Shown: piece after piece, positions 15,465 to 55,934 of the stretch
Numbering within the stretch: position 1 is the first letter of the stretch
Layout: every line of letters begins with the position of its first letter
DNA from: Escherichia coli
Lineage (GTDB): Bacteria > Pseudomonadota > Gammaproteobacteria > Enterobacterales > Enterobacteriaceae
Length of the DNA stretch: 64,000 nt
Assembly (NCBI RefSeq): GCF_044324785.1
Contig: NZ_CP172127.1
Reading direction: 5' to 3' (one strand)
The notes under the pieces: generated by a model
Databases searched by the model: none
Told to the model about the DNA's origin: nothing
The model's input: only the letters and a program-made list of their open reading frames with translations
Program-made: the position numbers and the translations under genes

Positions 15465-15577
15465 AGGCTACACCCTTAACGGTTATTACTTTGTGTTGAG
15501 ATAACTCAACCTGTTATTGCTGCGGTGTATTAAAAGCCCTTTAATTCATTAAAAATGGGTAATAAGAATGATGATAA

Positions 15578-15745
15578 TTATTGTTTCGGCTGATCATCTT
15601 CAGCAAACAGTTCTATAAAGGCTTGCTGCTGCGTTGTTAGTTGCCAGTCGTCTGGAATAACGACGGAACATTCCCGTTTCGTTTCTGGTTCATTGTCACT
15701 ATGCTGACATAATGGTGACGACTCCAGTTGCTCCTGACCGACCAT
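15578..15745 (-). CDS. yciX: small protein YciX
   Basis: ORF 15578..15766 trimmed to MVGQEQLESSPLCQHSDNEPETKRECSVVIPDDWQLTTQQQAFIELFAEDDQPKQ. Confidence 0.7.
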   Translation of the reverse strand: MVGQEQLESSPLCQHSDNEPETKRECSVVIPDDWQLTTQQQAFIELFAEDDQPKQ

Positions 15746-23269: not shown

Positions 23270-23272
23270 GTG

Positions 23273-23306
23273 AAAGCACCTCAAAAGAAGCCTCTTGAGG
23301 TGCTTT
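23273..23306. terminator. 12-bp-stem hairpin at the cobO 3' end and left islet boundary
   Basis: aaagcacctcaa-aagaagcctc-ttgaggtgcttt read directly; no clean T-run on either strand, so terminator function is uncertain. Confidence 0.4.
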
Positions 23307-23320
23307 AATCATGATTATAT

Positions 23321-23629
23321 TCAAGCGGCAATAGCGAAATTCAGAATACGTGTAATCTCATTCAAATGTCCCTGATATGCTTCATGATTCTCAGCGTCAA
23401 CATCTTCAATAAATAATATCAGTTCAGTAATTAACGCATTAGCATCGTCATAATTTATCCCGGCTAACTCTGGCGAAGTTTCAGTACCGTAGTTAATCGT
23501 CAGGTTGTTCATAACTGTGAGGATATGGATAAAATATTTATGACAAACATTACATGTGGTTTTATTACCCAAAGTATTATACAGCATATCAAGTAATGCC
23601 AGTATTCTACGGTTTTGCACATCGTTCAT
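23321..23629 (-). CDS. hypothetical 102-aa protein, islet gene 2 (no signal peptide, CNVCH motif, acidic C-terminal half)
   Basis: ORF preceded by strong SD aggagg about 7 nt upstream of ATG; starts 10 nt after the stop of the upstream lipoprotein gene. Confidence 0.55.
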   Translation of the reverse strand: MNDVQNRRILALLDMLYNTLGNKTTCNVCHKYFIHILTVMNNLTINYGTETSPELAGINYDDANALITELILFIEDVDAENHEAYQGHLNEITRILNFAIAA

Positions 23630-23639
23630 AAAAAGCCTC

Positions 23640-24641
23640 CTATAACATTATTCCGCTGGCAATAAGTAATTTTGCCAGCCCCTCAGACGCCTTTAACCCA
23701 CTAATGACCTGTGCGCGTAATATTTCATTTAATCTTTTTTGTTCAGCTGCCGTGCGTGTTTTATTAACGTATAAGCTTTTCAGATAATCACCCTTATCTA
23801 TAAAGGCATTTAAAGCCTCAATCGCAGGCATGGCAGGTGCCGATGCCTGTAGTCTGGTTTCATTCACATTGATTACTGAACTTAGAAACTCCTTCCTGTT
23901 TTTCAGAGTGTTAAACTCTGTATTCTTAGAGTTTTTAGATGCCGTATTATAATAAAACATATTATCATGCACATTCGCAAAGGTATAATTTTCAATCTTA
24001 TTGCTTTTTGTATAAATATCATTGCGCAAAACTGCCATGTTCTTTATAAGTCTTACCCAGTTTTCATCTACCGTTTTGCCTATTTTTCCAGAATTGACTT
24101 TAATTATATATAACTCATTGAAATAATTTACCAAATCTTTAACCGCTGCTGCAGATTGAGCTAAATCTTTGCTATGTGAAACACCAAGTAGTGTTTGTGC
24201 GTTGTTTGCGTGATCCAGAGCCTGTTTAAGTAATGCCACTTGCTGACTTTCCGTAGTTGCCATATCCTTTGTCAGAAGTTCCACATAAGCGCTCATGCTA
24301 TTAATGACTTCCATTGAAGCCAGTAATTTTTCTTTCTCGAAAGGGACTAATTGTACTTGTTTTGTATTTGGCCCTGAACGCTGGCATAATTTTCCGCCAT
24401 TCCCATCACCGCCTATATCAATGGTATAATCAGGTCGCAGGGCACAATCCGGATTAGTCGCGTAGAAATTAACAAGGAAGTTTTCACGAGAAGCATAGTA
24501 TTGTTTAAAGAAACTTGCATTCGCCGCTACTGCTTTGTTACCCGCAGTAATAACAGTTTCAGCTTGTTCGTTTTTCAATGCTTCAGTTGCACAACCTGAA
24601 AGCATTAACAGCGATAGAAATATTCCACTATATCTAATCAT
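23640..24641 (-). CDS. hypothetical 333-aa lipoprotein, islet gene 1 (signal peptide + lipobox LSGC, Ala at +2)
   Basis: 1-kb ORF in roughly 30% GC DNA; MIRYSGIFLSLLMLSGCATE...; SD aagagg upstream; Asn/Lys/Ser-rich mature region. Confidence 0.65.
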   Translation of the reverse strand: MIRYSGIFLSLLMLSGCATEALKNEQAETVITAGNKAVAANASFFKQYYASRENFLVNFYATNPDCALRPDYTIDIGGDGNGGKLCQRSGPNTKQVQLVPFEKEKLLASMEVINSMSAYVELLTKDMATTESQQVALLKQALDHANNAQTLLGVSHSKDLAQSAAAVKDLVNYFNELYIIKVNSGKIGKTVDENWVRLIKNMAVLRNDIYTKSNKIENYTFANVHDNMFYYNTASKNSKNTEFNTLKNRKEFLSSVINVNETRLQASAPAMPAIEALNAFIDKGDYLKSLYVNKTRTAAEQKRLNEILRAQVISGLKASEGLAKLLIASGIML

Positions 24642-24766
24642 AACCCACCTCTTGACGTTGAGTTTATCTCAGATAATTAAATAGTAATGTGGCTATTTCC
24701 GGGTATTATTCATAAGCAAGTATGAAATTAAATTAAAATACTGCGACTATTTATCATGCTTCAAAT

Positions 24767-24791
24767 GAAGAAAAGGCCCCGCAGGGCCTTT
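24767..24791 (-). terminator. rho-independent terminator of rluB
   Basis: On the minus strand, stem aaggccc-tgcg-gggcctt followed by ttttcttc. Confidence 0.7.
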
Positions 24792-24810
24792 ATTTTATAC
24801 TTATCTTAAA

Positions 24811-39646: not shown

Positions 39647-40186
39647 ATGAAGCAGTTTCTTGATTTTTTACCGCTGGTTGTCTTTTTCGCGTTTTACAAG
39701 ATTTATGACATCTATGCGGCTACTGCGGCGCTGATCGTCGCCACGGCGATTGTGCTTATCTATAGCTGGGTTCGCTTTCGTAAGGTTGAGAAGATGGCCC
39801 TGATCACTTTTGTTCTGGTGGTCGTCTTCGGTGGCTTGACGCTGTTCTTCCACAATGATGAGTTTATAAAATGGAAGGTTACTGTCATTTATGCCCTGTT
39901 TGCGGGTGCCCTGTTAGTCAGCCAATGGGTGATGAAAAAGCCGCTAATTCAGCGGATGCTGGGTAAAGAACTCACGCTGCCGCAACCGGTATGGTCGAAG
40001 CTGAATCTGGCCTGGGCTGTTTTCTTTATCCTTTGCGGTCTGGCAAACATCTACATCGCATTCTGGCTGCCGCAAAATATTTGGGTCAACTTTAAAGTCT
40101 TTGGCCTGACCGCCCTTACCTTAATCTTCACATTGTTAAGCGGTATCTATATCTACCGCCACATGCCGCAGGAAGATAAATCCTAA
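39647..40186 (+). CDS. yciB: inner-membrane protein YciB (intracellular septation protein A family)
   Basis: 179-aa polytopic ORF; synteny. Confidence 0.85.
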
Positions 40187-40290
40187 CCAGACTGCCAGTC
40201 CTTCGGGGCTGGCGCTGTATCTCCTCTGTTCTCCTCAGGAAAATCATAGTAGCATCGCGCCTGTGATTTTCCTTTTAAGTCGGTTTTACC

Positions 40291-40689
40291 ATGTCTACAA
40301 CACATAACGTCCCTCAGGGCGATCTTGTTTTACGTACTTTAGCCATGCCCGCCGATACCAATGCCAATGGTGACATCTTTGGTGGTTGGTTAATGTCACA
40401 AATGGATATTGGCGGCGCTATTCTGGCAAAAGAAATTGCCCACGGTCGCGTAGTGACTGTGCGGGTTGAAGGAATGACTTTCTTACGGCCGGTTGCGGTC
40501 GGCGATGTGGTGTGCTGCTATGCACGCTGTGTCCAGAAAGGGACGACATCGGTCAGCATTAATATTGAAGTGTGGGTGAAAAAAGTCGCGTCTGAACCCA
40601 TCGGGCAACGTTATAAAGCGACAGAAGCATTATTTAAGTATGTCGCGGTTGATCCTGAAGGAAAACCTCGCGCCTTACCTGTTGAGTAA
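40291..40689 (+). CDS. yciA: acyl-CoA thioesterase YciA (hotdog fold)
   Basis: 132-aa ORF MSTTHNVPQGDLVLRTLAMPADTNANGDIFGGWLMSQMD... Confidence 0.9.
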   Translation: MSTTHNVPQGDLVLRTLAMPADTNANGDIFGGWLMSQMDIGGAILAKEIAHGRVVTVRVEGMTFLRPVAVGDVVCCYARCVQKGTTSVSINIEVWVKKVASEPIGQRYKATEALFKYVAVDPEGKPRALPVE

Positions 40690-40690
40690 T

Positions 40691-40722
40691 AGTCAAAAGC
40701 CTCCGGTCGGAGGCTTTTGACT
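40691..40722. terminator. bidirectional terminator between convergent yciA and tonB
   Basis: Near-perfect palindrome agtcaaaagcctccg-g-tcggaggcttttgact. Confidence 0.85.
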
Positions 40723-40728
40723 TTCTGC

Positions 40729-41445
40729 TTACTGAATTTCGGTGGTGCCGTTAATTTTAAACAGGATATTCACCACAATCCCACTGCCTGGCTTACCCGG
40801 CTCATAACGCCATCTGCGCATCGCATTTTTCACCTCACGCTCAAACATGTTCGCAGGCTTGGCTGAGAGGATTTGCACGTTATCCACGCGACCATCCGGC
40901 GTGACATCAAATTTAACTTTAACCTGCCCTTCAATGCGCAATGCCTGTGCTCGTGCCGGATACTGCGGCTGATTGCGGCTTAATGCGCGTGGTCCTGAAG
41001 CCACACTTGTAACCGGCTTGCTGGTTGCAGCCGTCGCCGTACTTGATGTCGGGCGCGCGGGTGCCGTATTTTCAAACGGTGATGCCGGACGCGACTCTAC
41101 GGGTTTGACATCGCGTTTTGGCTGCTCCTGTACCTTTTTCACCGGCTTCGGTTTTGGCTTAGGTTTCGGCTTCGGCTTTTCAATGACCACCGGTGCTTCT
41201 TTTGGCGGTTCGGGGATCGGCTCAGGTTCCGGTTCTGGCTCTACCACCGGCTCCGGTGGCGGCTGAACGGCTTGTGGCGGTTCGAGATCCGCAGGCGCAA
41301 CCATCGTGACAGAAATTGGCTGCGCAGGCGCAGGTAGTTCAATAACCTGATGTACCGAGGTATAGAGCAGACCCGCCACAACAGCACCATGAATGCAGAC
41401 CGAAAGTAACGTCGGCCAGGGGAAGCGGCGAGGTAAATCAAGGGT
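40729..41445 (-). CDS. tonB: TonB energy transducer, with (EP)n/(KP)n proline-rich spacer
   Basis: ORF 40729..41499 trimmed to [29 protein letters not shown]...; [15 protein letters not shown] and [12 protein letters not shown] repeats. Confidence 0.95.
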
Positions 41446-41485
41446 CATTGAAGTCATAATCATTTCAGTAGAAAAACCAGGCCTT

Positions 41486-41515
41486 GATTTTAAATGCAAA
41501 TAGCAATCATATTCA
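41486..41515 (-). promoter_or_regulatory. tonB promoter region with Fur-box-like AT-rich repeat
   Basis: Minus-strand tgaatatgattgctatttgcatttaaaatc 40-70 nt upstream of the tonB ATG; resembles the GATAATGATAATCATTATC Fur consensus. Confidence 0.55.
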
Positions 41516-41671
41516 ATAAGGCAAGACGATCAGGATCAGTGAAAATGTCATTTTTGGCGTTATTGACCTTACTTTTTAAATGGTCTTAACAAAGACATCA
41601 TCTTTCCGTTGCAGATCTTCGCCCTTTCAAATAACGTACTTTACAACTTTCCCGAACAAGGAGTTGTGCCC

Positions 41672-41968
41672 GTGTTGTATGTTATTTACGCTCAAGACAA
41701 AGCTGATAGCCTCGAAAAACGCCTTTCCGTTCGTCCGGCACATTTAGCACGTTTACAGTTACTGCATGGTGAAGGTCGATTGTTGACCGCCGGTCCAATG
41801 CCAGCAGTAGACAGTAACGATCCAGGGGCTGCGGGATTTACTGGCTCAACCGTTATTGCTGAATTTGAATCGCTGGAAGCAGCTCAGGCCTGGGCCGATG
41901 CTGACCCGTACGTAGCGGCAGGGGTCTATGAACACGTTTCAGTGAAACCATTTAAGAAAGTGTTCTGA
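41672..41968 (+). CDS. yciI: YciI-family protein
   Basis: ORF 41609..41968 trimmed to a GTG start giving (M)[27 protein letters not shown]... Confidence 0.8.
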
Positions 41969-42268
41969 ATAGAGATTCAATATTTAAGGGCACGGTTTTT
42001 GCAACCGTGTTCTTGTTTGGCCTTTCCTTATAGGTCGGTCAGTGCATTCACCCCCACAAGCAGATAATAACTTTATCTGTATTTCTTTATATGATGTGAG
42101 CATATTCAGGAAAAATGCCCTTTCCTGACGCAGAGTTGCTCACTCAAAACCTTTGATTACTGCGGATAAAGTCATCTACTATTGTTTAACACATTCACGC
42201 GCTGCATGTATGTTCAGAAAATGTGCACGCTAAGATAATTAAACAAAATTGTGGTTACAGAGGTATCA

Positions 42269-43522
42269 GTGAGTCACTGGGCTACATTCAAACAAACAGC
42301 AACTAATTTATGGGTGACCCTACGGCACGACATTCTCGCGCTGGCCGTCTTTTTAAATGGATTGCTTATTTTTAAAACAATCTATGGTATGTCGGTCAAT
42401 TTGCTAGATATTTTCCATATCAAAGCATTTTCAGAGTTGGATCTCTCCTTGCTGGCAAACGCCCCACTATTTATGCTCGGCGTCTTTCTTGTCCTGAACT
42501 CCATTGGCTTACTGTTCCGGGCAAAGCTCGCATGGGCAATCAGTATCATTTTGTTGTTGATAGCGCTAATTTACACCCTGCATTTTTATCCCTGGCTGAA
42601 ATTTAGTATTGGATTTTGCATTTTTACGCTGGTGTTTTTGCTGATACTGCGCAAAGACTTCTCCCACAGTAGCGCCGCAGCCGGGACAATTTTCGCATTT
42701 ATTAGTTTCACGACGTTACTGTTTTACTCCACCTACGGTGCGCTTTATTTAAGCGAAGGTTTTAATCCGCGAATAGAAAGTTTGATGACCGCGTTCTATT
42801 TTTCGATAGAAACCATGTCAACCGTCGGCTATGGCGATATTGTCCCTGTTTCTGAATCAGCACGATTGTTCACTATTTCGGTCATTATTTCCGGCATTAC
42901 CGTTTTTGCCACCTCTATGACCTCAATTTTTGGTCCGCTTATCCGCGGGGGATTCAACAAACTTGTAAAAGGAAACAATCATACAATGCATCGTAAAGAT
43001 CATTTTATTGTTTGCGGACATTCGATTCTCGCCATCAATACGATCCTGCAACTGAATCAACGCGGACAAAACGTAACGGTTATCAGCAACTTGCCTGAAG
43101 ATGATATCAAGCAACTTGAGCAACGCTTAGGCGATAACGCTGATGTTATCCCCGGTGACAGTAATGACAGTTCAGTATTAAAGAAAGCGGGAATCGATCG
43201 ATGCCGGGCCATTCTGGCGCTGAGTGATAACGATGCAGATAACGCGTTTGTTGTACTCTCGGCAAAAGATATGAGCAGTGATGTCAAAACAGTTCTCGCC
43301 GTCAGTGATAGCAAAAACCTGAATAAGATTAAGATGGTACATCCGGATATCATTCTCTCGCCGCAACTGTTTGGCAGCGAAATTCTGGCGCGAGTTTTAA
43401 ATGGTGAAGAGATTAATAATGATATGCTCGTTTCAATGTTGTTGAACTCCGGTCATGGCATTTTCAGCGATAACGATGAACAAGAAACGAAAGCTGACAG
43501 TAAAGAATCGGCGCAAAAATAG
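42269..43522 (+). CDS. kch: voltage-gated potassium channel Kch (TVGYGD selectivity filter, RCK/TrkA domain)
   Basis: ORF 42251..43522 trimmed to GTG start at VSHWATFKQ; selectivity filter TVGYGD present. Confidence 0.85.
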   Translation: MSHWATFKQTATNLWVTLRHDILALAVFLNGLLIFKTIYGMSVNLLDIFHIKAFSELDLSLLANAPLFMLGVFLVLNSIGLLFRAKLAWAISIILLLIALIYTLHFYPWLKFSIGFCIFTLVFLLILRKDFSHSSAAAGTIFAFISFTTLLFYSTYGALYLSEGFNPRIESLMTAFYFSIETMSTVGYGDIVPVSESARLFTISVIISGITVFATSMTSIFGPLIRGGFNKLVKGNNHTMHRKDHFIVCGHSILAINTILQLNQRGQNVTVISNLPEDDIKQLEQRLGDNADVIPGDSNDSSVLKKAGIDRCRAILALSDNDADNAFVVLSAKDMSSDVKTVLAVSDSKNLNKIKMVHPDIILSPQLFGSEILARVLNGEEINNDMLVSMLLNSGHGIFSDNDEQETKADSKESAQK

Positions 43523-51356: not shown

Positions 51357-52093
51357 TGTTTTTTGGACTCCCTCATTATAATTACTGGTATTAACCAGCA
51401 TGTGTAATCCCGGATTGGGACCCTGCACAGGCTCGGAGACTTTCTGCTGTCAGGTTACTTTATCGTTACGGATTGCTATCACCGACTTTATTTATTCTGG
51501 TGATTCAGACGATCACCTTATGTCGATTCGTACTGTGTCTCCCCTGTCGAGACACATTATTCTTTCGCGACGCTCTTTAATTGTTAATTATTCTCATTAC
51601 CAATAAAGAATCGCCTGACGGTTGCCCGGAAAGTACCAAATGCGGTTCTTACTCGCCAATACATTTTGCAAAATTGTTAAGCAATTCTCTTTTATTGACC
51701 GTATCAGAATCTATAGCTTGTATCCATGACTTAACAAACATCTTTAAATTCAATCAAATAGAGATTGGTTAAGCATGTCTATCTTTTCTGATTACAGTTC
51801 CAGTAGTGAAATGCACAATAATTTAACAATTGATTATTATTTAGCACTTTCCTCTACCAAAGGCAGTGGAATTACTAATATCATTTCAATTATTCTTCAG
51901 CAAGCCCAGGATTATGATGTGGCGAAAATAACATGATGGTAAGGAGAAGCAGTTAAGGAAATCCTTATAACTACCTGTAATTTGAGAAGAATATTTTTAC
52001 CTATTCCTTTTGCTTTTGATAACTGCGCGGGAACAAAGTAAAAATAATGACGAAGTAAACGGAGCATGGCAGCTCCGTTTCATTTGAAAGGAA

Positions 52094-55909: not shown

Positions 55910-55934
55910 GCAACATAAACGGTCCCTTCTGGGG
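55910..55934 (+). terminator. rho-independent terminator of adhE
   Basis: cggtccc-ttct-ggggccg (one G-U pair) followed by ttttttt. Confidence 0.8.

Follow-up and report, generated by a model that had tools for sequence, protein, structure and literature searches.

Canonical anatomy of the tonB promoter, its weak Fur operator and the terminator shared with yciA in a 64-kb stretch of an Escherichia coli chromosome

Two short sequences flanking tonB raise the question of how far a regulatory locus can be read from its letters alone: is the minus-strand DNA upstream of the gene, described in the initial annotation as resembling the Fur consensus, really the iron-responsive operator, and does the palindrome lying between tonB and the convergent gene yciA end the transcripts of both? 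In the stretch of 64,000 nucleotides analysed here (the window), the answer is very probably the canonical E. coli tonB anatomy, in which a sigma-70 promoter is placed under a weak multi-dimer Fur operator and a terminator acting in two directions is shared with the neighbouring gene. Both the operator and the terminator are already known and neither is new.

The window is a piece of E. coli chromosome running from fabI to narJ and is collinear, in reverse orientation, with positions 1,351,038 to 1,285,691 of K-12 MG1655. In its central part, yciA (40291..40689, plus strand) encodes 132 aa and ends with the TAA at 40687-40689; its product is presumably the protein formerly called P14, encoded by the gene opposing tonB. 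The tonB gene (40729..41448, minus strand, 239 aa) is convergent with yciA and extends from the ATG at 41448 to the TAA at 40731..40729, while yciI (41673..41968, plus strand, GTG start) is divergent from tonB and bounds a regulatory intergenic region of 224 bp. In-frame ATGs at –15 and –9 were considered as an extension of TonB and rejected, the ATG at –15 not being conserved. A 1751-bp query across yciA, tonB and yciI matched 5422 of the 5426 complete E. coli genomes searched, the best at 99.3%, and among the best matches listed tonB, yciA and yciI were annotated under the query. From the –35 element to the tonB ATG only two positions, 41485 and 41482, differ from K-12, and these lie on the downstream side of the –10 element; seven of the nine K-12 differences found in the whole tonB-yciI intergenic region are packed into the 26 bp of 41560-41585, a patch that is also poorly conserved between genera.

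Larger differences from K-12 are found elsewhere in the window. Between btuR and rluB, a 1.5-kb segment (23270-24809) without a K-12 counterpart encodes a putative lipoprotein of 333 aa, with a lipobox-like N-terminal LSGC, and a protein of 102 aa, neither of which has a Pfam match; the segment is complete in 424 of the 5426 E. coli genomes, in which it is annotated as two hypothetical proteins. Moreover, two insertion elements that K-12 MG1655 carries, an IS5 upstream of oppA and an ISZ element close to tdk, are absent here (window positions 51841-51844 and 55924-55933, respectively).

The stop codons of yciA and tonB are separated by 39 nt, almost filled by a hairpin at 40691..40722, predicted to be an intrinsic terminator serving both genes. 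This is exactly where the initial annotation had placed a near-perfect palindrome common to the convergent pair; the stem is in fact perfect, its 14 pairs (seven of them G-C) closing a loop of 4 nt, with the plus strand reading AGTCAAAAGCCTCC-GGTC-GGAGGCTTTTGACT. A G+C core, GCCTCC/GGAGGC, occupies 40699-40714, with AAAA on one side and TTTT on the other. From the yciA stop it is 1 nt to the stem, and from the tonB stop 6 nt. Folding gave –28.4 kcal/mol in the yciA sense (plus strand) and –25.3 kcal/mol in the tonB sense (minus strand), with z scores of –7.4 and –5.8, respectively, and none of 200 shuffled sequences folded equally well. Because the two arms are perfectly complementary, the same 3′ end is found on both strands: each strand reads GGAGGC-TTTTGACT and both transcripts end in ...GGAGGCUUUUGACU. 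In the proposed mechanism, each transcript would fold the same G+C stem and continue into UUUUGACU, so that a single hairpin would terminate transcription in a Rho-independent manner both ways, the A-tract of one strand being the U-tract of the other. An Rfam scan of 40000-42300 at E ≤ 1 returned three sub-threshold chance matches (two to miRNA models, one of these two lying on the hairpin) and no RNA family.

The 45-nt region that includes both stop codons is identical to K-12; searched as a 45-mer, it has exact counterparts in 3266 E. coli records and carries one or two differences in 2044. In 44 other genomes in which yciA is convergent, the gap from stop to stop measures 27-87 nt, and most of them have AAAAA-GCCTCC-loop-GGAGGC-TTTTT between tonB and yciA. 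Among other genera, 27 different tonB-yciA spacers again gave a consensus of A-tract, G+C stem and T-tract, with 12 pairs, nine of which show compensatory double changes; this design is thus kept by compensatory change in many Enterobacteriaceae.

Some relatives depart from this design. In two Salmonella loci the GCCTCC hairpin is replaced by palindromes without T-tracts, and it is likewise replaced in four loci belonging to the Citrobacter freundii group and to a metagenome-assembled genome labelled Raoultella. The replacement palindromes are longer and some of them are REP-like (GCCGGATG...), which raises the question of how the tonB and yciA transcripts end in Salmonella and in the C. freundii group.

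A different reading of the hairpin at 40691-40722, which we regard as quite unlikely, is that it is an efficient terminator in one direction only, or that it acts mainly as a stem stabilising the 3′ ends of both mRNAs. Several observations lean this way. The U-tract is short and interrupted (UUUU followed by GACU), the terminator scan called the plus strand only if the full 14-bp stem was counted, and the Salmonella and C. freundii-group palindromes at this position have no U-tract. In addition, the yciA stop adjoins the stem and a terminator placed very near a translated gene is described as open to inhibition by the ribosome (PMC4824070). Against this, however, the arms are symmetric and give both RNAs the same end, and the A-tracts and T-tracts are both kept in the 27 distinct spacers of other genera. 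Furthermore, the title and the citations of Postle and Good (1985; Cell 41:577) credit that study with Rho-independent termination in both directions at this site between tonB and its opposing gene. A shared two-way terminator remains the preferred interpretation, although the efficiencies of termination in the two directions may differ, given the position of the yciA stop 1 nt from the stem. A search of the literature for relevant modern 3′-end data on the yciA/tonB terminator found none.

On the other side of tonB, the minus-strand 30-mer quoted in the initial annotation, tgaatatgattgctatttgcatttaaaatc, lies at 41515..41486, that is 38-67 nt upstream of the ATG at 41448, and is the same as in K-12 MG1655. 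In essence, this sequence is the core promoter of tonB and not a Fur box with borders of its own. In fact, a –35 hexamer TTGAAT (41516-41511) and a –10 hexamer TAAAAT (41492-41487), both on the minus strand and separated by a spacer of 18 bp (41493-41510), make up the single sigma-70-like match that a scan of both strands of 40200-42100 gave, and the quoted 30-mer differs from this unit only in missing the first T of the –35 hexamer and in adding one base after the –10.

The Fur operator can be placed on this promoter from published data. The footprint of Fur at tonB was listed at 1309040-1309072 of NC_000913 (Chen et al., 2007; PMC2189734, Table 3). With the tonB ATG placed at 1309113 on that coordinate system (Shultzaberger et al., 2007; PMC1807945, legend of Fig. 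5), the footprint is computed to span –73 to –41 relative to the ATG. These borders are second-hand, being taken from PMC2189734 and PMC1807945, while the original work is that of Young and Postle (1994). The old coordinates were converted to current K-12 numbering by adding 1976, and the sequence was then compared directly with the window. The footprint maps to 41521..41489 on the minus strand, where CCTTATTGAATATGATTGCTATTTGCATTTAAA is identical in K-12; it overlaps 27 of the 30 quoted bases and reaches 6 bp further upstream, to 41521, while the quoted 30-mer runs 3 bp downstream of the listed end, to 41486, at a border that was itself reported as uncertain (PMC1807945). The operator thus takes in everything from the –35 hexamer through the spacer to the fourth base of the –10 hexamer, on the one sigma-70-like promoter seen upstream of tonB. 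Within the footprinted region, three Fur sites had been predicted, the strongest of 11.5 bits, with 88% of the region covered by sequence walkers (PMC2189734), and two Fur sites had been described over the sigma-70 promoter and polymerase site of tonB, one of them competing with the –35 (PMC1807945).

More recent genome-wide data fall on the same bases. In Fur ChIP-exo experiments under iron-replete conditions, a peak was listed at 1312747-1312759 in W3110 and at 1309033-1309056 in MG1655 (Gao et al., 2023; PMC10164565, Dataset 2). The W3110 peak, GCTATTTGCATTT, corresponds to window positions 41504..41492 (the tonB ATG of W3110 being at 1312803), and the MG1655 peak, CGTCTTGCCTTATTGAATATGATT, to 41528..41505. 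As to the dataset itself, the gene labels of the MG1655 sheet appear to be displaced by one row from peak P37 onward: the peak at 1309033-1309056 lies upstream of tonB and yet is labelled acnA, and later peaks bear the label of the next gene. Expression data point to the same control, since deletion of fur raises tonB mRNA by log2 1.6-4.8 in eight E. coli strains (PMC10164565), and in a fur mutant of Salmonella the increase is 11.4-fold (PMC3212961). The comparison with the published tonB footprint proposed in the initial annotation therefore places Fur on the quoted sequence, and a Fur site lying elsewhere in the upstream region, which had been named as the observation that would speak against it, was not observed; ChIP-exo and derepression in fur deletions agree on this point.

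The resemblance to the Fur consensus is weak. The best match to the 19-bp consensus GATAATGATAATCATTATC is 12/19, a value reached or exceeded at 117 positions of the window. A symmetrised 19-bp Fur matrix was derived from the 11 K-12 regions that have footprints apart from tonB, which was left out (PMC2189734, Table 3); with it, the best site of the tonB promoter (41502-41520) scores 7.6 bits and ranks 30th in the window, while 15.6 ± 4.3 sites of at least 7.57 bits are expected in 64 kb of first-order Markov sequence. Moreover, when the tonB-yciI intergenic region was shuffled, 13.5% of the shuffled sequences equalled or beat its best matrix score. As a lone motif, the tonB Fur site is indistinguishable from chance. 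The consensus count and the single-site matrix score being insufficient as evidence, the clustering of phased sites and their conservation were used instead. The matrix reveals three overlapping sites with 6-bp phasing in 41490-41520, namely 41490-41508 (0.45 bit), 41496-41514 (2.1 bits) and 41502-41520 (7.6 bits); such triples of positive sites phased by 6 bp occur at five positions (four loci) in the window, where 0.44 are expected. The triple-phased arrangement exceeds chance, and the cluster coincides almost to the base with the published footprint. The weakness of the single sites also fits the modest aerobic repression of tonB reported in MG1655, log2 1.6 (PMC10164565).

Other matches to the Fur matrix are scattered in the window. 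The strongest, at 51583-51601 (18.7 bits), lies about 227 bp upstream of oppA and belongs to one of the other three loci with triple phasing; a Fur site upstream of oppA has been confirmed by gel shift (Chen et al., 2007; PMC2189734). Second comes a match of 15.5 bits at 15564-15582, located upstream of acnA in the interval between yciX and ymiC; its position agrees approximately with the peak named ‘acnA’ in the W3110 ChIP-exo data (PMC10164565). Further matches are located inside yciC (39257) and yciQ (27390).

The conservation of the promoter was followed in 100 loci, retrieved by searching species-representative genomes with a degenerate DNA pattern of TonB codons 1-13. More than 20 genera of the family Enterobacteriaceae are represented, among them Escherichia, Salmonella, Citrobacter, Klebsiella, Enterobacter and Kluyvera, as well as Kosakonia, Raoultella, Buttiauxella, Atlantibacter, Cedecea and Siccibacter. 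When 97 upstream regions were aligned, identity to the window amounted to 98% in the –35 hexamer, 98.5% in the 18-bp spacer, 99% in the –10 hexamer and 95% in the Fur footprint, to be compared with 75% in the tonB leader and 36-40% in 41522-41600. The 30-mer that extends from –35 to –10, TTGAATATGATTGCTATTTGCATTTAAAAT (41487-41516, minus strand), is identical in 88 of the 97 genomes and has one or two differences in six more; within the species, of 5409 E. coli records compared with a 41-mer over it, 5399 reach at least 99% identity across the aligned part. Two other conserved blocks of the intergenic region, at about 41608-41614 and 41623-41635, read GTTGCAG and CCTTTCAAATAAC on the plus strand and are probably the promoter of yciI.

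In three loci (two from Enterobacter and one from Silvania) the tonB promoter region is unrelated to that of E. coli. In its place there is a better Fur-like box, GCAAATGATT(A/C)TCAATTAG, scoring 10.7-13.4 bits and accompanied by a 6-bp-phased partner; it lies at –71 to –80 from the ATG, the same distance as the E. coli operator. That replaced promoters should keep a Fur-like box argues, from the comparison of these sequences, that Fur control is likely to be the conserved function at this position.

Taken with the published work, these observations fit a simple model. When iron is sufficient, two or three Fe2+-Fur dimers would occupy the overlapping 6-bp-phased sites in 41489-41521 and compete with the sigma-70 RNA polymerase for the same DNA, so that tonB transcription would decrease; when iron is scarce, Fur would leave the operator and tonB would be derepressed. 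Fur binding, and derepression in the absence of Fur, are published for the identical tonB sequence (PMC2189734, PMC1807945, PMC10164565), and occlusion of the promoter by Fur is a published interpretation (PMC1807945) that we infer to hold here as well. It should be stressed that the assignment of Fur to this site rests on the published experiments, because the sequence resemblance by itself is weak.

It is also necessary to ask whether a functional Fur site might lie elsewhere, or additionally elsewhere, for example as a roadblock or translation-region site. The candidate is a second Fur-like 19-mer in the tonB leader, TGAAATGATTATGACTTCA (41449..41467, minus strand), which abuts the ATG, scores 7.8 bits, on a par with the best promoter site, and has a core, GATTATGAC, that is conserved across genera. 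Conservation beside a start codon is, however, expected from translation initiation signals; the 19-mer has no 6-bp-phased partners, its Salmonella counterpart falls to 4.7 bits, the published footprint stops at about –41 from the ATG, and no separate ChIP-exo peak is listed at 41449-41467 (PMC10164565). We consider it very unlikely that the functional site, or an additional one, lies elsewhere than on the promoter; to judge from its sequence, the leader 19-mer may serve translation initiation or be a secondary site for Fur and, if bound by Fur, it could only supplement the promoter site and never replace it.

Finally, the notion that the 30-mer is a sigma-70 core promoter and nothing else, its likeness to Fur sites having arisen by chance in AT-rich DNA and the iron regulation being indirect or exerted elsewhere, draws on the chance-level consensus match and single-site score and on the part of the conservation explained by the hexamers themselves, but is scarcely credible in view of the footprint and ChIP-exo peaks on exactly these bases, of 18 spacer bases that promoter function alone is unlikely to have fixed one by one, of a triple-phased cluster far above expectation and of the replaced promoters that retain a Fur box at the same position.

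The preferred reading, a promoter overlaid by a weak multi-dimer operator, leaves one feature that is mildly unexpected, namely that a 30-mer matching the Fur consensus so poorly should be invariant from genus to genus. The constraint on it, all 18 bases of the spacer included, is greater than a weak Fur operator and two hexamers would obviously need, and therefore it is conceivable that the spacer carries an additional constraint not yet described, such as the binding of a second sequence-specific protein or the sensing of DNA twist or supercoiling. We offer this as a speculation with a small chance of being correct. The supercoiling option for the 18-bp spacer is a possibility that would link it with the anaerobic and supercoiling control of tonB that Dorman and colleagues are said to have described in 1988.

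With regard to anaerobic control, the title of Young and Postle (1994) names a further factor, acting upstream, for the anaerobic repression of tonB. An FNR ChIP-seq summit has been listed upstream of tonB at the old K-12 coordinate 1308975 (PMC3688515, Table 4), which maps to about 41586 in the window; this summit is possibly connected with the ‘second factor binding upstream’ of that title. No convincing FNR box was found in the tonB-yciI intergenic region: the best match to TTGAT-N4-ATCAA is 7/10, at 41526-41539, and 375 positions of the window match this consensus at 7/10 or better.

As far as its wider meaning is concerned, the value of the locus is mainly one of quality control, documenting an intact E. 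coli chromosome around tonB with its textbook promoter/operator and terminator unchanged. The initial annotation had presented the two features as expected, well described and useful as an internal check of the integrity of the region, and this judgement was appropriate: both were already known, and both are identical to K-12. A more general lesson concerns the prediction of regulons. The tonB Fur site cannot be recognised by consensus or by single-site score alone, which calls for caution where predictions rely on motifs only; it is instead identified by the 6-bp-phased clustering of its sites, by their position on the promoter and by their extreme conservation.

In comparison with known systems, the terminator agrees with the one of K-12 tonB attributed to Postle and Good (1985): the sequence in the window is identical to K-12, is located between convergent genes and has the symmetric design of A-tract, G+C stem and T-tract. 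Compared with the other genera, the E. coli terminator has only four A or T residues in its tracts and a stem extended by GTC/GAC, where theirs continues into longer A/T runs. The operator, in turn, is like the strong Fur boxes of fepD-entS, fhuF, entC and fur in being AT-rich, in consisting of overlapping sites phased by 6 bp, in lying over the core promoter and in serving repression when iron is replete. Unlike them it is weak, with 7.6 bits against 15-23 for most of the eleven training sites (two are lower, 10.8 and 12.6), and the 11.5 bits published for tonB are the lowest strongest-site Ri among all the footprinted regions of PMC2189734 (Table 3). With respect to the Fur operator of K-12 tonB, attributed to Young and Postle (1994) and modelled in PMC2189734 and PMC1807945, the sequence is identical from –35 through –10 and over the whole footprint, the distance to the ATG is equal and so is the yciI-tonB-yciA context; the two substitutions at 41485 and 41482 and the seven at 41560-41585 all lie outside the footprint.
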